The notes under the pieces were generated by a model that made no database searches, was not told where the DNA came from, and worked only from the letters and a program-made list of their open reading frames with translations. This document shows positions 4,269-57,309 of a stretch of 64,000 nucleotides of DNA, piece after piece. Made by a program: the position numbers and the translations under genes. Origin of the DNA: Candidatus Omnitrophota bacterium (GTDB taxonomy: Bacteria > Omnitrophota > Gorgyraeia > Duberdicusellales > 4484-171); the NCBI GenBank assembly GCA_041652815.1, contig JBAZGN010000002.1, positions 238,261 through 302,260 on the forward strand. The letters are read 5' to 3'. Position 1 is the first letter of the stretch. The number at the start of each line of letters is the position of its first letter.

Positions 4269-6701
4269 ATGTTTAACAGATTTACAGAGAGAGCAAGAAA
4301 AGTTTTGGTTCTTGCGAAAGAAGAAGCAAGGCGTTTTAATCATGATTACATAGGCACAGAGCATATACTACTTGGTTTGGTAAGAGAAGGCGAGGGGGTG
4401 GCTTGTGCTGTTTTGCAGAATTTAGGTATTGATTTGGAGCGCTTGAGAATCGAAATAGAAAAACTGATTTCTCCCGGAAGCTCGGCTTCTGTTTTGGGAG
4501 AAATACCGTTTACACCGCGCGCCAAAAAAGCCTTAGAGCTTGCTGCTGAGGAAGCGCATAATCTGGGGCACAATTACATAGGCACAGAGCATATTCTCCT
4601 TGGCTTAATAAGGGAAGGCGAGGGGTTAGCTTCACAGGTCCTTTTTTCGTTAGGTGTTGATTTACGAAAAATAAGGGAAGAAATAGCAGCTCTTCTTGGA
4701 GGAGGCCAGTCTTATCAGGGGGCTGCCCCGCAGGCTACATCCAAAACCCCGGCATTAGATTCTTTCGGAAGAGATTTAACCAAACTTGCAAAAGAAGGCA
4801 AATTAGACCCGGTTATCGGCCGTAAAGGCGAGATAGAAAGAGTTATCCAGGTGCTTTCACGCAGGACCAAAAACAATCCTGTTCTTTTGGGTGAAGCTGG
4901 CGTAGGCAAAACTGCAATCGTAGAAGGTTTAGCTCAAAGCATAACACTTGGTGAGGTACCGGAGATTCTTCGGAATAAAAGAATAGTTGTGCTTGATTTG
5001 GCGCTGATGATAGCCGGAACAAAATACCGCGGGCAGTTTGAAGAAAGAATTAAAGCAGTAATGGAGGAAATAAAACGTTCCAAAGACGTTATTATTTTCA
5101 TAGATGAGTTGCATACTCTCGTTGGCGCAGGCGCAGCTGAAGGAGCGATAGATGCTTCAAATATTTTAAAGCCGTCCTTGTCCAGAGGGGAAATTCAGTG
5201 TATAGGTGCAACCACCCTTGATGAATACAGAAAATATATAGAAAAAGATGCGGCGCTCGAGAGGAGGTTTCAGCCGATAATCGTTGAGCCGAATTCTGTT
5301 GAAGAAACAGTTGAAATATTAAAAGGCCTACGCGATAAATACGAAGCGCACCACAGAGTTAAATTTTCTAATGAAGCAGTTGAGGCAGCATCAAAGCTTT
5401 CTGACAGGTATGTATCCGGAAGATTTTTGCCGGATAAAGCAGTTGATTTAATTGATGAGGCGGGTGCCCGCGCGCGTTTGGCGGTTTTGACGGCTCCGAA
5501 AGAGATAAAAGACCTTGAAGACAAATTAAATGGAATAGACCGCGAAAAAGAAGCTCTTATAAAACAGCAGGATTTTGAAGCAGCGGCACGGCTTCGTGAC
5601 GAAGAAAAAAAGCTACGGCTGCAGCTGGATTCTTTAAGAAAGGATTGGAGCAAAAAAAGAGACCAGATTATTCCGACTGTAAGCGAAGAAGATATTGCGC
5701 ATTTAGTTGCGCAAATTACAGGTATACCCATCTACAGGCTTGAAGAAAGAGAATCGGAAAAGCTTCTTAAGATTGAAGAAAAATTAACCGAAACAGTCAT
5801 CGGCCAGACAGAAGCCCTCCAGGCTATAGCGCGTTCTATCAGGCGTGCAAGGGCAGGGATAAAAGAGCCGCGCCGGCCAATTGGCTCATTTATGTTTCTC
5901 GGGCCAACCGGAGTAGGCAAGACTTTGCTTGCGCGGGCTCTTGCTGAACTTATGTTCGGTGATGAAGAGGCATTGCTTCAAATTGATATGAGCGAGTATA
6001 TGGAGAAATTCAATGTTTCAAGGCTTATAGGAGCCCCCCCCGGCTATGTAGGTTACGAGGAGGGAGGCCAGCTTACCGAACGTGTTAGAAGAAGGCCGTA
6101 TTCCGTAATTTTGCTTGATGAAATAGAAAAAGCCCATCCAGATGTGTTTAATTTACTTTTACAGATATTGGAAGAAGGCAGGCTTACCGACAGCTTCGCA
6201 AGAAAGATTGATTTTAGAAATACCATTTTGATAATGACTTCTAATGTTGGCGCTGAAATAATCAGGCAGCGTGGTTCCTTGGGTTTTAAGCCTCTGACAG
6301 AAGATATAGGCTACGAAGATATGAAGAACATGCTTCTTGATGAAGTAAAAAAAGCGTTTAAACCGGAATTTTTGAATAGGCTAGATGAGGTTATAGTTTT
6401 TAGGCCTCTTGGTAAAGAAGACCTTGGCAAGATAGTTGACATTGAGCTTTCCTACGTGAACAGCCGCCTGAAAGACCAGGGTGTTGAGGTCCAACTTTCC
6501 AATGATGCCAAGGATTTTTTTGTAGAGAAAGGTTTTGATCCGGTGTTTGGTGCGCGCCCTTTAAAGAGAGTTATACAAAGGTTTTTAGAGGATCCGTTGG
6601 CGGAAGATATAATAAAAGGAGAATTTACAGAGAGATTGAAAAAAGAAAAACCAGTGAAAATAAAAGTAACTAGAAAAGGCGAAGAATTGAAGTTTGAATG
6701 A
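4269..6701 (+). CDS. clpC: ATP-dependent Clp protease ATP-binding subunit ClpC
   Basis: Tandem Clp-N repeats, two AAA+ modules (GEAGVGKT and GPTGVGKT Walker A) and a UVR-like coiled coil between the AAA modules. The length is 810 aa. Confidence 0.9.
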
Positions 6702-50515: not shown

Positions 50516-53221
50516 ATGTCAAACGAGAAAAATTTTTACAATTTATCTATTCAGGGCATTGCTGAGGCGCTTAACGCCAACATCGATAAAGGGCTTAGTA
50601 GCGATGAAGCCAGCAAGCGGCTATCAGATTTTGGGCTTAATCAGCTTGAAGAAAAAAAGAAGATTTCTCCTTTTGAAATTTTCTTTGAGCAATTTAATGA
50701 TTTCATAATATGGATTTTGATAGGCGCCGCGGTTGTGTCAGGATTCTTAGGTGAATGGATAGACGCGCTCGCGATAGTTGCGATTGTTATATTAAATGCA
50801 ATTTTAGGTTTTATTCAGGAATACCGCGCAGAAAAATCACTCGCTGCCTTAAAAAAATTATCTTCACCTACCTCAAAAGTTATTAGAAACGCAGAGCGCC
50901 AGATTGTTTCGTCTTTACATCTTGTGCCGGGAGATTTAATTGAGCTTGAAGCAGGAGACAATGTTCCTGCTGATTCAAGAGTTATTTGGCATACCTCAAA
51001 TTTTAGCGTGCTCGAGGCAAGCCTTACAGGCGAGTCAACTCCGGTTGCAAAAACGTTACACGCCTTAGAAGAGAAAAAAATTCCCTTGGCGGATAGAGCG
51101 AATATGGTTTATATGGGAACCTCCGTAGTTTCCGGTAAAGCAAAGGCATTGGTTACTGAAACCGGAATGCGCACTGAACTTGGAAAAATTGCAACCATGG
51201 TTCAGCAGATTGGACGTGAAACCACGCCTTTACAGAAAAAACTTGAAACATTCGGAAAGTGGATAGTTTACCTTTGTTTTGCGCTTGTTGCTATTGTATT
51301 TATATTAGGCATTGTGCGTGGAGGAAAAATACTGGATATGTTTTTAACCGCAGTAAGCCTTGCGGTTGCGGCAATTCCGGAAGGCCTTCCCGCGGTAGTA
51401 ACTATTGCTCTAGCTTTAGGCGTGCAAAGAATGGTTAAGCGCCACGCGCTTATTAGGAAATTGCCGTCCGTTGAAACGCTTGGTTGTGCTACGGTTATTT
51501 GTTCTGATAAAACAGGTACGTTAACTAAGAATGAAATGACAGTGCAGGCAGTATTTGCCGCTAATTGTCTTTTTAAGGTAACCGGTATAGGATATGCGCC
51601 TGACGGGAACTTTCTGTCTTTCGAAAAAGAAATAAACCCTTCGCAATACCCTGATTTACTCAAGACGTTAACTTTAGGCGTATTATGTAATGCAGCTACA
51701 TTAATAAAAAAAGATACAGGCTACAAAATAATCGGTGACCCTACGGAAGGCGCGCTTTTAACCTGTGCTGCCAAGGCTGGGATTTTAAAGGAAGATATGG
51801 AAAAAGAATTTAATTTTTTCGATGAAATACCTTTTGATTCCGAAAGAAAAAAAATGACTGTCATCCGTAATTCTGCTGACGGAAAGAGGTTTGCTTTTGT
51901 AAAGGGTGCACCCGACATATTACTTAATGATTGTAAGGTGATTTACGAAAATTCAAGCACAAGAACTCTCTCTGCCGAAGACAGAAAAATAATATTAAAA
52001 GTAAATAATGATTTAGCAGATTCCGCAATGCGCGTTTTAGCGGTTGCCTATAAAGAAGTTTCGCCAGCTGAGAAAATCGAAGCGGAAACAATAGAGAACA
52101 ATCTTATTTTTTCAGGCTTAGTTGCTATGATTGACCCTCCGCGTGAAGAAGTAAAATTCGCAATGGAGGAATGTAAAACTGCCGGCATAAAAACAGTTAT
52201 GATTACTGGCGACCATAAAAATACAGCTGTGGCGATAGCGAAAGACCTGGGTTTTTTTAAGGAAGGCTCCATAGCTTTGGCTGGTGAAGAACTCGATAGA
52301 TTAAGCGAGGATGAATTTAGGAGTAAAATTGAAAAAATACCGGTATACGCAAGAGTTTCCCCGGAAAATAAATTAAGAATTGTGCGCGCATGGCGTGCGC
52401 GCCATGAGGTCGTTGCTATGACCGGCGACGGTGTAAATGACGCCCCGGCAGTAAAAGAAGCTGATATAGGCGTTGCCATGGGGATTACCGGCACCGACGT
52501 TACAAAAGAAGTTTCGGATATGGTAATTACCGATGATAACTTTGCTTCAATTGTCGCAGCAGTAGAAGAAGGCAGGGGTATTTACGAAAATATAAAGAAA
52601 TTTATTCATTATTTACTCTCCTGTAATACTGGAGAAATTCTGGTTATGTTTATTTCTTCTTTGGTTGGTTTGCCGGCGCCACTTCTTCCTATACATATAC
52701 TTTGGGTTAATCTTGTAACTGACGGATTTCCTGCGCTCGCTCTTGGCGTTGACCCGGTTGACCCTAACATTATGACAAAGCCGCCCCGTCCTACTAATGA
52801 ACCGGTAGTTACAAAACAAAGAGCAATTCTTATGCTTATGCAGGGCGCTTTTATTGCTTTTTGCAGTTTATTTGCTTTTATATTTGTGTTATTTATTGAG
52901 AAAGAAGGAATTGTTCGTGCGAGAACCGCGGCATTTATAGTTCTTGCCTGTAGCCAGTTGTTTCATTCATTTAATTGCCGGAATATGACGGAATCACTTT
53001 TTAAAATAGGAATTTTTACGAATAAAAAACTTATCCTGGCAAATTTTATATCATTTTTTTTACTGATGGCAGTTGTATATGTCCCATTTTTACAAAAAAT
53101 TTTTAAGACAGAGCCTTTAGGCAGCTTTGATTGGGTTTTGGTTGTGGCCATTTCTTCTTTCCCGTTGTGGGCAATGGAAATTGTAAAGATAATTAATAAG
53201 AAAAGAGGGTTTCTAAAATAA
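50516..53221 (+). CDS. P-type ATPase, type IIA (Ca2+-transporting, SERCA/PMR-like)
   Basis: The phosphorylation motif DKTGTLT, the hinge motif TGDGVNDAPA, the ion-site motif PEGLP and ten TMs are present. The length is 901 aa. Confidence 0.85.
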   Translation: MSNEKNFYNLSIQGIAEALNANIDKGLSSDEASKRLSDFGLNQLEEKKKISPFEIFFEQFNDFIIWILIGAAVVSGFLGEWIDALAIVAIVILNAILGFIQEYRAEKSLAALKKLSSPTSKVIRNAERQIVSSLHLVPGDLIELEAGDNVPADSRVIWHTSNFSVLEASLTGESTPVAKTLHALEEKKIPLADRANMVYMGTSVVSGKAKALVTETGMRTELGKIATMVQQIGRETTPLQKKLETFGKWIVYLCFALVAIVFILGIVRGGKILDMFLTAVSLAVAAIPEGLPAVVTIALALGVQRMVKRHALIRKLPSVETLGCATVICSDKTGTLTKNEMTVQAVFAANCLFKVTGIGYAPDGNFLSFEKEINPSQYPDLLKTLTLGVLCNAATLIKKDTGYKIIGDPTEGALLTCAAKAGILKEDMEKEFNFFDEIPFDSERKKMTVIRNSADGKRFAFVKGAPDILLNDCKVIYENSSTRTLSAEDRKIILKVNNDLADSAMRVLAVAYKEVSPAEKIEAETIENNLIFSGLVAMIDPPREEVKFAMEECKTAGIKTVMITGDHKNTAVAIAKDLGFFKEGSIALAGEELDRLSEDEFRSKIEKIPVYARVSPENKLRIVRAWRARHEVVAMTGDGVNDAPAVKEADIGVAMGITGTDVTKEVSDMVITDDNFASIVAAVEEGRGIYENIKKFIHYLLSCNTGEILVMFISSLVGLPAPLLPIHILWVNLVTDGFPALALGVDPVDPNIMTKPPRPTNEPVVTKQRAILMLMQGAFIAFCSLFAFIFVLFIEKEGIVRARTAAFIVLACSQLFHSFNCRNMTESLFKIGIFTNKKLILANFISFFLLMAVVYVPFLQKIFKTEPLGSFDWVLVVAISSFPLWAMEIVKIINKKRGFLK

Positions 53222-53225
53222 AAAA

Positions 53226-53756
53226 ATGAGCATAACCACGAAAACAGGCGATAGCGGAAAAACTTCTTTATTTTTTGGAGAAAGGATTTCTAAAGATGAT
53301 TTGAGAGTAGAGGCGTATGGAACGCTCGATGAGTTATGTTCATTCATGGGCATGGCAAAGAGCCTGGTTAAAGATAAGGCTACTAAAGGAATTGTAGAGG
53401 GCATCCAGCGCGATTTATTTATAATTGGTGCAGAAACAGCAACCCTGCCCAAATCCTTGAATAAACTTAAAAAAAGAATAAATACTAATTATGTATCAAA
53501 ACTTGAAAAGCTCATAAGGCACTGGGAGAGCAAAAAGAAATTCGAAGCCCGTTGTTTTTATTTACCGGGAGAAAACCTAATTTCCAGCTCTTTTGATATA
53601 TCAAGGACTATTGCGAGAAGGGCAGAACGCCTGCTGGTTGCTTTAAAAAGAAAGAAAATTATTAAAAATCCTGATATAATTATTTATCTAAACAGATTGT
53701 CCGATCTTTTATATCTTTTTGCGCGTAATTACGAAAAGAAGCCTAAAAGAAAGTAA
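53226..53756 (+). CDS. PduO-type ATP:cob(I)alamin adenosyltransferase
   Basis: The N-terminus is TKTGDSGKTSL. The ~176 aa length fits the PduO-type fold. Confidence 0.75.
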   Translation: MSITTKTGDSGKTSLFFGERISKDDLRVEAYGTLDELCSFMGMAKSLVKDKATKGIVEGIQRDLFIIGAETATLPKSLNKLKKRINTNYVSKLEKLIRHWESKKKFEARCFYLPGENLISSSFDISRTIARRAERLLVALKRKKIIKNPDIIIYLNRLSDLLYLFARNYEKKPKRK

Positions 53757-53777
53757 CTCGAAAATAAGGAGGTGTTT

Positions 53778-54176
53778 ATGAGAACCGTATTTAACTTTTT
53801 GTTTATTTTGTCTGTTTTTTGCTCGTTTCCGGCAAACGCCGTTGACTATGATGATACTTATTCAAAGGATGAAATAGGTTATGATAAATTTCTTTCCGTT
53901 CAGGATGACTATAAACTTGTTATGAAAGATAATGATATATACGTATATGATATAGCAGGCTTAAGCCGGCGGCGCATAACCCATACGGCAAAGTTAAATA
54001 AGCCAATGGCAACTTTTTCAAAGGACAGAGGTTATATCTTGTATGCGGAATATTCGAAAGAGGGTGAAAATGAGGGAGAGTTAAAATATTACAGGGTTAA
54101 ATTTGACCAGGACGATGATTCCCGGCAGCTTATTTCCAGTGACGAATATAACGCCTTAGCTTCCGGAGGCAAGTAA
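53778..54176 (+). CDS. Hypothetical exported protein
   Basis: A signal peptide and the RBS AAGGAGG are present. There is no known domain. Confidence 0.45.
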   Translation: MRTVFNFLFILSVFCSFPANAVDYDDTYSKDEIGYDKFLSVQDDYKLVMKDNDIYVYDIAGLSRRRITHTAKLNKPMATFSKDRGYILYAEYSKEGENEGELKYYRVKFDQDDDSRQLISSDEYNALASGGK

Positions 54177-54292
54177 AATAAAAATACGGATTTTATATAT
54201 TGATTGTTAACAGGTAAAAATACAAAAATTTACACCATTGGACACATCAAGCCACAAATAATTACGTACCGGCAGGCAGCCTTGTTTTTGGC

Positions 54293-54320
54293 TTGACAAA
54301 CATATCGGCAGGAGTATATT
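54293..54320 (+). promoter_or_regulatory. Sigma70-like promoter TTGACA-N16-TATATT driving a noncoding transcript
   Basis: It has a consensus -35 element and a good -10 element. There is no ORF downstream before the terminator. Confidence 0.4.
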
Positions 54321-54327
54321 AAAGGCA

Positions 54328-54497
54328 CAATCAGGCAATCGTCCCGAGTTTGAAGGGCTAAATCCAGGACGTTCCGCCTTCGCCCTTTGTTAGGGTAGTA
54401 GAAACTCTGACGGGCTACGGCGGACCAGCCCAGATAGATAGATTAAGGTGGCTGGAAAAACAATTAAAACCTTTGCATAAAGAGCAAAGGTTTTTTT
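54328..54497 (+). ncRNA. Candidate structured small RNA / unknown riboswitch-like leader (~170 nt) bounded by promoter and intrinsic terminator
   Basis: There is no ATG in the transcript. The GGGCT/AGCCC and TCCGCC/GGCGGA pairings are present. The terminator CCTTTGC-ATAAAGA-GCAAAGG + T7 lies at 54469..54497. Confidence 0.35.
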
Positions 54498-54516
54498 ATT
54501 TTATAGGAATTGAAAT

Positions 54517-55650
54517 ATGTTGATTAAAGCAAATATTAGCCTGGAAGAAAAACTTTCTATATTATCAAATGACTCGAAATATGACCTTGCCTGTGCCTGC
54601 GCTCCTTCTAAAGAGGAACATCGTAAGCGCTCGAAGGAAGATAAATGGATATATCCGGTTGTATTTCCTAACGGAGGCAAAACTTTTCTTTTTAAAACCC
54701 TTCTTTCCAATGAATGCATCAATAATTGTAAGTATTGCCCTTTAAGGATAAATGCAGATACAAAACGCTTAAGGTTAGAACCAGAAGAGCTTGTTAGGCT
54801 ATTTCTATCGTATTATAAAAGCGGAAAAGTATCCGGACTTTTCCTAAGCAGCGGCGTTATAAATAACCCCGACGTTACAATGGAACGTATCAACCATGCG
54901 GCAGTTTTACTGCGCCGTCAAAATTTCAGAGGTTACATTCATTTAAAAATTATTCCGGGAGCCTCAGACGCAGCTATCCGTAAGACGATTGCCTTGGCCA
55001 GTGCCGTATCGCTTAACATTGAAACAGCCGGAGAAGTAAATTTCAAAGAGCTTTCTACGACAAAGAACTATCTGCGTGACATAATAAACCCAACAAACCT
55101 TATCAGTAGATTAACTCAAAGGGGCTCTTTCTATCAAAACGTAAAACATACTACACAGTTTGTTGTCGGCGCATCCAAAGAGACAGATAAAGAGATTGTA
55201 GGCTATAGCTGGAAGCTTTATAGGGAGTTTAACCTTGACCGCGTATATTTTAGCAGTTATCAGCGCGGCGCAGGCGCGCAGGATTGTTTCGGCGAACGTT
55301 CCAGCTATACGAACAACCAATTGCTTACTCGGGAACACAGGCTTTATCAGGCAGACTGGTTGCTGCGTAAATACGGATTTCAAGCCTGCGAAATCCCTTT
55401 TTGTCCGGATGGTAACCTTTCTCTGGAGACTGACCCAAAAGAAATGTGGGCGCGAAGGCATCCGGAATCCTTCCCGATAAACATAAATAAAGCAGATAGA
55501 TTGAGCCTTCTTCGTATACCAGGTATCGGTATAGTTCTGGCAGAACGCATCCTTGCCTTTAGGAAAAACCGCGTAAAGTTGAGCTCTCTATCTGATTTGG
55601 GAAAAGTAAATAAAAACTTGAGAAAAGCCTTATCTTATATAGCTTTTTAG
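54517..55650 (+). CDS. Putative DNA modification/repair radical SAM protein (CxxxCxxC + C-terminal helix-hairpin-helix)
   Basis: CINNCKYCP is the radical SAM cluster motif. The C-terminal HhH is LLRIPGIGIVLAERIL. The length is 377 aa. Confidence 0.7.
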   Translation: MLIKANISLEEKLSILSNDSKYDLACACAPSKEEHRKRSKEDKWIYPVVFPNGGKTFLFKTLLSNECINNCKYCPLRINADTKRLRLEPEELVRLFLSYYKSGKVSGLFLSSGVINNPDVTMERINHAAVLLRRQNFRGYIHLKIIPGASDAAIRKTIALASAVSLNIETAGEVNFKELSTTKNYLRDIINPTNLISRLTQRGSFYQNVKHTTQFVVGASKETDKEIVGYSWKLYREFNLDRVYFSSYQRGAGAQDCFGERSSYTNNQLLTREHRLYQADWLLRKYGFQACEIPFCPDGNLSLETDPKEMWARRHPESFPININKADRLSLLRIPGIGIVLAERILAFRKNRVKLSSLSDLGKVNKNLRKALSYIAF

Positions 55651-55726
55651 CATAGGCAATACTAGTTGACAAATCCCCAGATAGGCGTATCATAAACATA
55701 CAAACAAACAAAAGATTAGAGTTCTT

Positions 55727-55768
55727 AGCCGTAAGGATAGGATAACTAACTTTACGGCTTTTTTATTA
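55727..55768 (+). terminator. Hairpin AGCCGTAA-N16-TTACGGCT + TTTTTT in the csp leader / after the radical SAM gene
   Basis: It has an 8-bp stem and a U-tract. It lies between a TTGACA-N16-TATCAT promoter-like site (55666..55693) and the csp RBS. Confidence 0.4.
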
Positions 55769-55803
55769 ATAGCGCACTTAGGTTGCGCAAAAAAGGAGGT
55801 TCA

Positions 55804-56013
55804 ATGCATACAGGTAAAATCAAAAAACTAGTCAGGGAAAGAGGTTTTGGCTTTATTAGTGACACTGACGGAAGCGAAGTGTTTTTTCACAAAAGCAGCT
55901 TGCTTGAGGCTCAGTTTGATTCTTTGAACGAAAACCAGGAAGTCGAATTTGAAACCCGTAAAGGCCCAAAAGGCCCAAGTGCTGTCAGCGTCCGTGTAAA
56001 AGCCCAACAATAG
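55804..56013 (+). CDS. Cold-shock protein (CspA family)
   Basis: The RNP1-like RGFGFI and the beta-barrel core are present. The length is 70 aa. The RBS AAAAAGGAGG precedes it. Confidence 0.8.
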   Translation: MHTGKIKKLVRERGFGFISDTDGSEVFFHKSSLLEAQFDSLNENQEVEFETRKGPKGPSAVSVRVKAQQ

Positions 56014-56022
56014 TTTATCGAT

Positions 56023-57309
56023 ATGAAAATAGCGTTTATCGAGCCTAGCCCTGTTGAGAGCAATGTTTACAGTAAATTGCACATGCCATTGCTGGGCCCT
56101 CTTTATTTGGGAGCAATCCTTAAACAACGAGGGCACCAGGTTTCGATTTTTAACGAAAATATTTACCGCCCCGATTATTCAAAACTTGATGCGGATTTAA
56201 TCGGAATTTCTATTCTTACCTCAACTTCTAAACGCGGCTATGAAATAGCCAAAAAATTTCCAAAAGAAAAAGTAATTATCGGAGGAGTCCATGCGAGTTT
56301 GCTCCCTGAAGAGTCTCTGCAATATGCGCGGCAAGTTGTTATTGGAGAAGCAGAAGAAGTTATCGCTGACATAGTTGAAGGCAGGATGAAAGATCCTATC
56401 GTGCGCGGTAGGGAAGTTAAAAATCTGGATAGTCTGCCGCAGCCGGATTTTTCTCTGGTAAAAGGCTATAAAATTCCGGCAATGATTATGCCGGTTTCTA
56501 CATCCAGAGGTTGCCCTTTTGACTGTAGTTTTTGTTCGGTAACAAAACTTTTTGGACGAAATTACCGTTTTAGAAGCGCGCAAAGTGTTATGCAGGAATT
56601 ATTAACGCGGAGAACCGGTACTTTATTTTTCTGCGATGATAATTTTACCGCTCATCCAAAGCGTACAGAAGAGTTATTGAAGCTTATGATGGAAAATAAG
56701 ATAAATAATTGGACATGTCAAGCGCGTTGCGATGTTGCTAAGAATGATAAATTGCTTAATATGATGGTTCGTGCCGGCTGCACCACGGTTTGCGTGGGCT
56801 TTGAGTCGGTTAACAACAAAACACTTGAGGCATACCACAAAAAACAAACAATAGAAGATATAATAAAAGCCATAAAATCTTTTCATAGAAAAAAAATTAA
56901 AATTCACGGTATGTTCATTTTAGGAGCAGATCAGGATAGCGCAAAAACCGTATGGGAAACATTAAAGTTTGCGATAAAGCAAAAAATTGATACTATTCAG
57001 ATGTCAATCCTAACGCCTTTCCCTGGGACTAAAATTTGCGAAGAGCTGGAACGGGAAAAAAGGATTTTTAGCCGCGACTGGAGCCTTTATGACGGCCAGC
57101 ACATTGTTTTTAAGCCAAAGCTACTGTCTGCGAGAGAACTTCAGCTAAACGTTGTAAGAGCGTATGCCAAATTTTATTCGCTTTCTAATTCTTTAGCTTT
57201 ACTTTTAGGGCTACGCTTAAGAAATGCTTTCTTTAGATTTATGGGCAACAGGATTGTTAAGAAATGGGTTGCTCATAACCGAAAGATGCAGTGGATACTG
57301 CAAGGATAG
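56023..57309 (+). CDS. B12-binding domain radical SAM protein (class B, DUF4070-like C-terminus)
   Basis: The N-terminal cobalamin-binding Rossmann-like domain is followed by SRGCPFDCSFCSV. The length is 428 aa. Confidence 0.75.
   Translation: MKIAFIEPSPVESNVYSKLHMPLLGPLYLGAILKQRGHQVSIFNENIYRPDYSKLDADLIGISILTSTSKRGYEIAKKFPKEKVIIGGVHASLLPEESLQYARQVVIGEAEEVIADIVEGRMKDPIVRGREVKNLDSLPQPDFSLVKGYKIPAMIMPVSTSRGCPFDCSFCSVTKLFGRNYRFRSAQSVMQELLTRRTGTLFFCDDNFTAHPKRTEELLKLMMENKINNWTCQARCDVAKNDKLLNMMVRAGCTTVCVGFESVNNKTLEAYHKKQTIEDIIKAIKSFHRKKIKIHGMFILGADQDSAKTVWETLKFAIKQKIDTIQMSILTPFPGTKICEELEREKRIFSRDWSLYDGQHIVFKPKLLSARELQLNVVRAYAKFYSLSNSLALLLGLRLRNAFFRFMGNRIVKKWVAHNRKMQWILQG

Follow-up and report, generated by a model that had tools for sequence, protein, structure and literature searches.

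We performed a detailed analysis of a 64,000-nt stretch of DNA (contig JBAZGN010000002.1) from a Candidatus Omnitrophota bacterium, hereafter referred to as the window, with emphasis on the segment 54293-54516, which is located directly upstream of a gene encoding a radical S-adenosylmethionine (SAM) protein. This segment contains a real, conserved, structured, non-coding transcript unit and, judging by its sequence, belongs to a leader RNA family of Candidatus Omnitrophota for which no earlier description was found in the literature. The finding exceeds the proposal of a first-pass annotation of the window, which had noticed a terminated transcript upstream of this gene, in that the leader is common to DNA-repair and anti-phage genes across a candidate phylum. 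It is probable (we estimate roughly 0.6) that members of the family act in cis as conditional transcription attenuators, which decide whether their own terminator forms.

Structure and conservation of the leader

The transcript unit is preceded by a sigma-70-type promoter on the plus strand (54293-54320), composed of TTGACA (54293-54298), a 16-nt spacer and TATATT (54315-54320). As the first-pass annotation had stated, it is close to the consensus (11 of 12 positions), and it is one of only two matches of this quality in the 3.5 kb scanned. From the position of the promoter, transcription is predicted to start at about 54327, which would leave a 5′ tail of approximately 13 nt (54327-54340, the GCACAAUCAGGCAAUC region). 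There is no ATG in 54293-54516, also as claimed; one GTG and a few TTG triplets open only trivial frames. The unit ends with an intrinsic terminator (54466-54497), whose stem (AAAACCTTTGC/GCAAAGGTTTT, 54466-54494; AAAACCUUUGC/GCAAAGGUUUU in the RNA) consists of 11 pairs closed by a 7-nt loop (AUAAAGA). The stem-loop contains G+C and is directly followed by a U7 run (T7 in the DNA, ending at 54497), as is typical of intrinsic terminators, and the stability predicted for the hairpin is -12.7 kcal/mol. Folding predicted for the transcript is better than that of shuffled versions (z = -3.6).

The radical SAM gene (54505-55650, plus strand) follows the terminator directly, which agrees with the first-pass annotation. 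It has a ribosome-binding site (RBS), AGGAA, at 54505-54509, starts with ATG at 54517, and encodes a 377-aa TIGR03916-like protein, a putative enzyme of DNA modification or repair with a C-terminal helix-hairpin-helix domain; the TIGR03916 score, 294 bits, does not reach the curated cut-off of 343.5. Only 19 nt separate the end of the U-run from the ATG, and the gene can therefore be transcribed only through the terminator of its leader.

Several parts were distinguished between the promoter and the end of the terminator, all on the plus strand. The first is a conserved hairpin (GUCCCGAGUUUGAAGGGCUAAAUCCAGGAC, 54341-54370; exact match to GTCCYGNGTTWGAAGG at 54341-54356), in which a stem, P1 (54341-54346 with 54365-54370; C/A mismatch at position 5), encloses a loop (54347-54364). 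The loop segment GUUUGAAGG (54348-54356) includes GUU and AAGG, both invariant in 90 copies. Its last five residues, GAAGG (54352-54356), resemble an RBS and are proposed to constitute the 5′ strand of a predicted pseudoknot, or antiterminator. Two optional inserted hairpins follow: hairpin A (UCCGCC...GGCGGA plus an inner stem, 54373-54424), which minimal family members lack, and hairpin B (CCAGCC...GGCUGG, 54425-54455), which has a counterpart at the same place in loci L035 and L093 in the form of a short UCAGC(U/C)..GGCUGA hairpin. These lineage-specific insertions (54373-54455) account for about 80 of the approximately 170 nt of the transcript and lie outside the conserved core. The A-rich linker (AAAAACAAUUAAAA, 54456-54469) leads to the switch strand, CCUUUG (54470-54475; CCUUCG in the family), which is the 5′ half of the terminator and is also complementary to the loop GAAGG, with G-U as the fifth pair.

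The internal complementarities listed in the first-pass annotation fared unevenly. Both TCCGCC (54373) and GGCGGA (54419) were confirmed, and the relatives L035, L093 and L161 have a hairpin of the same form. GAAGGGC (54352) and GCCCTT (54382) are present too, although their pairing is not conserved in relatives, and GGGCT occurs twice (54355 and 54412) and not three times. Hairpins of the UCCGCC/GGCGGA type (or UCCCGN...NCGGGA) were observed in L085 and L191 as well as in the three loci just named. They are inserted mostly in the linker, and longer linkers, where read, hold inserted hairpins, often UCCGCC-loop-GGCGGA; in L085 (approximately 303-368) the insertion lies inside the hairpin loop, and L161 has up to four in succession. 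In appearance, these small hairpins resemble a portable structural module or a unit for the binding of a protein.

Of the checks proposed in the first-pass annotation, the Rfam search and the search of relatives for conservation and covariation were carried out. Using nhmmer and BLAST followed by alignment, the element was found 5′ of the orthologous radical SAM gene in seven other Omnitrophota-type genomes, with conservation of the promoter, the 30-nt hairpin, the A-rich linker and the terminator, including the sequence at the base of its stem. Between the radical SAM protein and its counterparts in Candidatus Omnitrophota genome bins, identity is 65-88%, a distance at which neutral DNA should be randomised. 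The same sequence also occurs in JGI 3300014205 and ENA ERZ27247363.

A search pattern derived from the hairpin alone (GTCCYGNGTTWGAAGG N3-33 CCNGGAC) yielded at least 120 matches in public metagenomes. An AAACCTT terminator, which the pattern does not force, was present within 400 nt in 108 of 128 pattern matches, giving at least 99 distinct copies. Two of the other 20 end at a contig edge; the remainder have no promoter and terminator and were therefore taken as chance matches, those that were read lying in G+C-rich sequence. The same element, with promoter and terminator, occurs at more than 100 loci of Omnitrophota-like DNA, far more often than chance would allow. All family statistics given here rest on the copies among the matches listed (at least 99 distinct) and the alignments on 81-90 copies. 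Seeding with a strict hairpin pattern overstates the invariance of the hairpin and under-samples divergent members, and copy number per genome and taxonomic range are estimates from one metagenome scan and one genome scan.

A covariance model, R1, built from 81 copies, recognises the window copy with 41.6 bits (E = 3e-6; 54327-54502). No family of Rfam 15, SAM and 6S families included, matched the 64-kb window at gathering thresholds. Searches of 54150-54560 at E <= 10, and of ten other copies at E <= 5, gave chance matches only, to HgcG (AT-rich spacer, other strand) and to PsrR1 and His_leader (terminator). The weak, partial match to the archaeal snoRNA HgcG (54150-54226, minus strand) scored 20 bits against a gathering score of 77. 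ARAGORN detected no tRNA or tmRNA gene in 53000-56000.

The order of parts is the same throughout the family: (i) a promoter about 13 nt upstream, (ii) the hairpin GUCC-YGNGUUNGAAGG-loop-CC-N-GGAC, (iii) the A-rich linker and (iv) the terminator with its CCUUCG 5′ strand. The core comprises approximately 65 nt, and minimal members approximately 85-110 nt. In most members the -35 and -10 boxes lie approximately 48 and 26 nt before the hairpin, which corresponds to a 5′ tail of about 13 nt; the tail is weakly conserved, with AAUYAGG in many copies. In the subgroup linked to radical SAM genes, the first transcribed bases are -10-like: CACAAT in the window (54326-54331, within the 5′ tail), TATAAT in L008 and L184, and CATAAT in L004 and L005. 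At lambda pR′, a hexamer placed in this way induces sigma-70-dependent promoter-proximal pausing. Such a pause element, a candidate at most for the subgroup, was rejected as a feature of the family, since the hexamer is not conserved family-wide.

P1 is composed of G1-C, U2-A, C3-G, C4-G and G6-C, with an A6-U variant, and a seventh, closing pair that covaries (C-G 22, A-U 18, U-G 13, U-A 4). Copies found by the model carry compensatory variants, namely GUGGUA/UGCCAC (L188), GUCGUA/UGCGAC (L085, L189, L191) and GUGUC/GGCAC (L137). Position 5 (54345/54366 in the window) was observed as C/C in 62 copies, as U/U in 11 and as a true pair (U-G or C-G) in seven. This like-with-like mismatch is unusual for a helix and may be a candidate recognition or binding site. 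The loop consists of invariant GUU, 0-3 variable nt and AAGG, which is extended to GAAGG in the main class; further forms, obtained from scans of viral contigs, are GUUGGAAGG, GUUCGAAGG and GUU-GAAGG. The linker (15 nt in 65 of 90 copies and 16 nt in 11) is near-invariant in sequence (consensus NUUAAAAAAGUAAAA), and so is the switch strand, despite the absence of both from the search pattern. In the terminator, the CCUUCG 5′ strand and the CGRRGG 3′ strand flank a freely covarying upper stem and are followed by a run of 5-7 U residues.

Across the whole alignment, 95.4% of cells are paired, compared with 86.2% in shuffles. The covariation score is 0.313, compared with 0.155 in shuffled alignments (none of 500 reaches it) and 0.02-0.07 when partners are slid. 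A mutual-information scan of the alignment gave no pairings besides P1 and the terminator. A leader peptide encoded by the UUG frame through the hairpin was considered and rejected: the hairpin varies between 27 and 30 nt, an A is possible at its position 11 (giving UAG), and conservation of the linker extends to each of its residues. An integron attC or other integration site was likewise rejected, given one copy per locus, no array, a promoter and terminator that are integral, and no integrase gene or flanking repeats seen in the loci examined, in which they were not searched for systematically. No second CCUU-type terminator occurs in the 64-kb window, and a general terminator style of the genome was rejected on this ground.

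IMG/VR contributed only about eight copies, and a viral origin of the family was rejected on this ground. Complete leader copies lie on a few contigs classed as viral (L204-L208, L210 and L211), followed either by a small conserved gene (MGKNQHVVK...) or by genes that have a second promoter-like TTGACA in front of them. Such contigs could be Omnitrophota prophages or phages, or mis-binned host DNA.

Genomic context and downstream genes

The context of the copies argues for action in cis. The next gene lies on the same strand in all 94 loci with enough sequence, while upstream genes are co-oriented in 75 of 83 (Fisher p = 0.002; binomial p = 7e-5). Start codons are found at a median of 36 nt past the U-run (at most 40 nt in 54 of 94), so close that most downstream genes have no promoter of their own. 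In related loci there is a strong gene-strand bias, approximately 90% of the genes flanking the motif sharing its strand.

Six loci (L101, L103, L128, L135, L142 and L145) contain a second, variant copy about 195 nt downstream of the first. No plus-strand promoter was recognised for any of these second copies, which can therefore function only with occasional read-through at the first terminator. The spacer of about 95 nt between the tandem copies (2032-2125 in L101) was observed to be approximately 83% conserved in the six loci, whose downstream genes differ; it has hairpins of its own (CGGCU..AGCCG and UACUAG..CUUAGUA) and no Rfam match. The second copies of L085, L189 and L191 have no classical terminator. 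In these, CCUUCUUUUG pairs with CAAAAGGGGG, the RBS located 4-5 nt before the AUG. The combination of transcriptional and translational platforms on one sensor is a hallmark of cis-regulatory RNA switches, and the family has one of the general features of a riboswitch, a conserved structured domain, with covariation-supported helices, in the 5′ leader of co-oriented genes (at least 99 distinct copies).

There is no synteny on either flank: downstream genes form 53 clusters in 94 loci and upstream genes 64 clusters in 83, on which ground a conserved-synteny or housekeeping RNA gene was rejected. L137 and L188 each contain two copies, 2.5-4.6 kb apart, and the defence genes that these head are not the same; in L188 the second copy is preceded by a promoter of its own, and in L137 none is evident. 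Together with the lack of synteny, this identifies a multi-copy leader and not a single housekeeping RNA gene.

The same observations bear on the proposal that the element is a standalone gene, present in many copies, for a trans-acting small RNA (sRNA) of about 100 nt, downstream expression being a leak. A consensus promoter and a strong terminator should indeed yield an abundant discrete RNA, the A-rich tract and U-tail resemble those of Hfq-type sRNAs, and an identical "seed", GUUNGAAGG, is present in all copies. The invariable orientation and closeness of the downstream genes, the conservation of promoterless second copies, the variant platform that sequesters an RBS and the lack of synteny on either flank are poorly compatible with it, and we regard it as improbable. 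Besides acting in cis, the terminated RNA could also act in trans.

The downstream genes, called by a simple open reading frame rule, represent 53 unrelated families. Based on their predicted functions, they may be divided into five groups: (i) envelope and stress proteins, i.e. SIMPL/DUF541 membrane proteins (11 loci, and three further downstream), LprI (2), HtrA, alpha-2-macroglobulin and MFS transporters (2); (ii) DNA repair and recombination proteins, i.e. radical SAM proteins (9, plus L161 and L009), DinD (4; NCBIfam E = 1e-107), RmuC, RadC, UvrD-like helicases, SMC/RecN-like ATPases and a Cas4-like nuclease; (iii) restriction-modification proteins, i.e. Dcm, Dam, N4/N6 and Eco57I-type methylases (11 in total) and MTaX1-HNH; (iv) other defence proteins, i.e. 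Cas3, SNF2 helicase, patatin, SAVED-HNH and Fic/RhuM; and (v) proteins whose function is not known, i.e. DUF3857-transglutaminase (4), DUF2130 (3), DUF4238 and DUF4268. Effectors of the cyclic-oligonucleotide-based anti-phage signalling system (CBASS) type are among them, and PADLOC models match many of the downstream genes. L188 is a defence island with the order motif, RhuM/Fic, AbiEi/AbiEii, motif, NgoPII endonuclease, Fic. A single leader in L009 heads a SIMPL gene, a REP transposase insertion (a REP-associated tyrosine transposase-like gene, 5244-5933), the radical SAM gene and the gene of the UV endonuclease UvsE.

Taken together, this looks like a damage and invasion response regulon, which combines DNA damage or invasion with envelope stress. 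In other bacteria, dinD, rmuC, uvrD and the TIGR03916 family belong to the LexA regulon, and DNA-damage-induced defence is known for CBASS (CapW, CapH/CapP). The LexA/SOS regulon is a functional analogue only: it shares dinD, rmuC/yigN, uvrD-like helicases, a TIGR03916-type gene and a UV endonuclease (the L009 operon), but SOS relies on a palindromic DNA operator, whereas the leader is transcribed and includes a terminator. In the leader, 22 nt separate the GTCC...GGAC arms, and these intervening residues are invariant and non-palindromic, unlike a LexA operator. A LexA-like operator was rejected for this reason and because conservation is strand-asymmetric.

The gene set also decides against the link to SAM chemistry suggested in the first-pass annotation. 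A SAM-sensing riboswitch serving a SAM-dependent enzyme, or a 6S-like RNA, is in our view extremely improbable; the sole points in its favour are that the gene uses SAM and that the transcript has approximately 170 nt. The radical SAM gene constitutes only about 10% of the leader-headed genes, so that 90% of copies precede genes unrelated to SAM, and no methionine or SAM biosynthesis or transport proteins are among the 53 families. SAM-I (RF00162) and other SAM riboswitches gave no covariance-model match; neither SAM nor 6S families appear at E <= 10 in the window copy, nor in ten other loci, and the SAM-I-like segment of the first-pass annotation, GCUAAAUCC, is the variable apical loop of the family hairpin. 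A standalone 6S RNA (RF00013) fits no better. About 80 nt of the length that suggested it are lineage-specific insertion, minimal members are far shorter, at least two copies can occur within 5 kb, a co-oriented gene follows each copy examined, and the architecture is that of a cis leader. What stands of the suggested unclassified riboswitch is the conserved, structured leader with a terminator resembling an expression platform; control of the gene by SAM does not.

The order noncoding RNA, terminator, defence gene recalls type III toxin-antitoxin systems. The abiF motif RNA RCd22 is an RNA element upstream of a defence gene (PMC12373285). In RCd22 and in ToxI, as in the leader, the RNA is followed by a terminator and a defence gene, and the terminator sets the RNA:protein ratio; these antitoxins are, however, specific to one protein family, and ToxI has tandem repeats, whereas the leader has no repeats and precedes 53 unrelated families, which include methylases and membrane proteins. 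No tandem repeats were found in 54100-54700, and ToxI-type repeats of about 34-36 nt are not present. With mutually unrelated downstream proteins, a type III toxin-antitoxin RNA was rejected.

Proposed switch mechanism and competing explanations

An indication of a switch comes from the strand CCUUC. Opposite its two U positions, A was counted in 116 and G in 46 sequence-positions of 81 aligned sequences; neither U is ever replaced by C, although C-G would be more stable opposite G; the strand is therefore constrained beyond the needs of terminator pairing, while the terminator 3′ strand drifts freely between A and G. The only conserved complement of CCUU(C/U) is the invariant loop AAGG/GAAGG, and CCUUC is common to the terminator and the RBS-sequestering platforms.

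We propose the following mechanism. A strong constitutive promoter would drive synthesis of an RNA whose first 45 or so nt fold into a hairpin of 6-7 bp, displaying the GUU(N)GAAGG loop. By default, CCUUC would pair with the terminator 3′ strand and transcription would end, releasing a short RNA (approximately 170 nt here and 85-110 nt in minimal members). Upon induction, the loop GAAGG would instead pair with CCUUC, giving an H-type pseudoknot in which the A-rich linker crosses the stem; formation of the terminator would then be prevented, and RNA polymerase would continue into the gene. In the variant class, the same CCUUC strand would mask the RBS, and the switch would act on translation. 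Any factor that stabilises the pseudoknot would serve as the trigger, and we rate a small molecule about as probable as an RNA-binding or antitermination protein.

Several points weigh against this mechanism. The pseudoknot helix of 5-6 bp, with a predicted -3.8 kcal/mol in the window and -6.1 in the consensus (approximately -4 to -6), competes with terminators of -12.7 and -24.6 kcal/mol, respectively (-13 to -25), and therefore needs a stabiliser or kinetic control during transcription. GAAGG:CCUUC is almost without covariation, and since both strands are invariant the pairing can only be inferred; a compensating A-U at the fifth pair is present in the tandem copy of L145. The sixth pair is mismatched (A/G or A/A) in 20 of 90 copies, and the fifth in five of the six promoterless tandem copies. 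Both termination and read-through are deductions from sequence. The downstream genes share no metabolic theme, which is unusual for a metabolite riboswitch, and the gene-strand bias (90% of upstream genes co-oriented) leaves the orientation statistic significant, not overwhelming. Finally, sampling with a strict pattern inflates the invariance of the hairpin and hides divergent members, and one genome-derived copy is labelled Planctomycetia.

The small-molecule version of the attenuator, in which the hairpin loop, together with the A-rich linker and CCUUC, would fold into a small pseudoknot aptamer of the fluoride, preQ1 or SAM-II kind that switches genes on, is a possible reading which we hold tentatively. 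The ligand would be a stress or infection metabolite or a nucleotide second messenger. Consistent with it are the core of approximately 65 nt, which has many invariant unpaired nt and a linker fixed at 15 nt, the two types of expression platform served by one sensor, the tandem copies and the lack of a conserved partner-protein gene nearby, and second-messenger riboswitches such as those for c-di-GMP control very diverse gene sets. Against it stand the simple structure (one hairpin and a putative pseudoknot), a pseudoknot without covariation, and a gene set that suggests no ligand candidate: transporters head only two of 94 loci (MFS) and obvious biosynthetic enzymes none, and it is such genes that usually reveal the ligand. 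Like the fluoride (crcB), preQ1-I and SAM-II riboswitches, the leader has a hairpin core of aptamer size with a loop able to pair downstream across an A-rich linker, and a downstream strand that doubles as half of a terminator or anti-RBS helix, both platforms occurring in one family. It differs from them in having no sequence or covariance-model similarity, no covariation support for the pseudoknot, a ligand that may not exist, and genes for defence and repair where theirs serve transport and biosynthesis. A similar layout, a short hairpin whose loop pairs with a strand past an A-rich linker, is also known from the pistol ribozyme; the likeness is one of architecture only, since the leader has no Rfam pistol match, includes a promoter and intrinsic terminator, and gives no sign of cleavage.

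A more specific form of the small-molecule version, which we consider rather unlikely, is a riboswitch for a molecule induced by damage or phage (e.g. a nucleotide-derived alarm signal), switching repair genes together with restriction, CRISPR, CBASS-type and abortive-infection genes. If true, it would be an RNA counterpart of the SOS response, with one signal wired to innate immunity, in a candidate phylum of ultra-small bacteria.

Alternatively, the attenuator may depend on a protein, i.e. a trans-encoded RNA-binding antiterminator or polymerase-modifying factor that reads the hairpin and linker, comparable to NusG paralogues of the LoaP/RfaH type, lambda N/Q, BglG/ANTAR-type or cold-shock proteins, with joint induction of acquired defence and repair operons. 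We give this version no more than limited credence, equal to that of the small-molecule one. In its simplicity and its invariant loop, the hairpin is typical of sites bound by proteins; the genes of the regulon are largely horizontally acquired accessory genes, as for RfaH and LoaP; the distance to the promoter is near-fixed, and the -10-like start element of the radical SAM subgroup recalls lambda pR′. As in lambda pR′-tR′ (Q antitermination; the phage "6S" transcript) and LoaP/RfaH leaders, a strong promoter is followed by a short terminated RNA and by genes reached by read-through, and as in LoaP/RfaH-type elements a common leader heads many horizontally acquired operons. Here, however, the terminator belongs to the conserved motif and is apparently disarmed by RNA-RNA pairing, and no Q, N or NusG-paralogue gene lies near any copy; tblastn searches of the motif-bearing loci with E. 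coli RfaH and NusG gave no homologue, and homologues of Hfq and CsrA were likewise not found there. Moreover, the 5′ tail and promoter-proximal region are poorly conserved overall, the constraint on CCUUC is better explained by RNA-RNA pairing, and ops, the RfaH recruitment site, acts as DNA, while the conservation of the leader is strand-asymmetric, as expected of RNA.

It is also conceivable, though hardly probable, that the leader is a constitutive, unregulated attenuator or insulator, whose leaky terminator fixes a low dose of potentially toxic defence genes and blocks read-in from upstream, the conserved 100-nt block being a portable promoter cassette or a homology anchor for defence-gene swapping. 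Many downstream genes encode nucleases, toxins and methylases, whose expression needs to be low, the variability of both flanks is as high as in defence islands, and orphan terminator copies are present in L093, L006 and L192. Such a device would not require that the loop be invariant, that the linker length be fixed, that constraint on the terminator be strand-asymmetric or that a translational platform keep the CCUUC logic; integrase genes and flanking direct repeats were not met in the loci examined, in which no systematic search for them was made. The orphan terminators (AAAACCUUCG...CGRAGGUUUU, without a hairpin) were observed at 886-962 of L093, 5897-5983 of L006 and 4962-5055 of L192, with complete copies nearby, and may have been left behind when the leader was duplicated or underwent recombination.

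Should the conditional attenuator model be true, Omnitrophota, an uncultured phylum of very small, possibly host-dependent bacteria, run a large and mostly acquired set of anti-phage and DNA-repair genes via one shared RNA leader and not via DNA-binding repressors. To our knowledge, it would be the first RNA attenuator or riboswitch-like element with an immune-defence regulon. The approximately 65-nt core offers a testable handle on the signal that raises defences in these bacteria, and the motif is a practical marker for new defence genes, i.e. whatever follows the leader. The family also fills a gap in Rfam for the annotation of Omnitrophota genomes.

Surroundings of the window copy

The G+C content of the window is 38-40%, and GC skew is positive in every 2-kb bin (1-64000). 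Three of the genome bins whose proteins resemble the radical SAM protein also share the upstream genes, which encode a Ca-ATPase, a PduO adenosyltransferase and a 134-aa hypothetical protein. The locus is flanked by genes of a PduO-type cobalamin adenosyltransferase (53226-53756) and a B12-binding radical SAM enzyme (56023-57309). A cobalamin riboswitch, which such a site might suggest, was rejected, given that none was matched by Rfam in the 64 kb and that elsewhere the motif is not tied to B12 genes.

A cold-shock-domain gene (55783-56013) is situated between the two radical SAM genes. Approximately 90 nt upstream of it lies a second promoter (55666-55693; TTGACA, 16 nt, TATCAT; 11 of 12), and the long 5′ untranslated region of this gene could be a candidate thermosensing leader of the cspA type.

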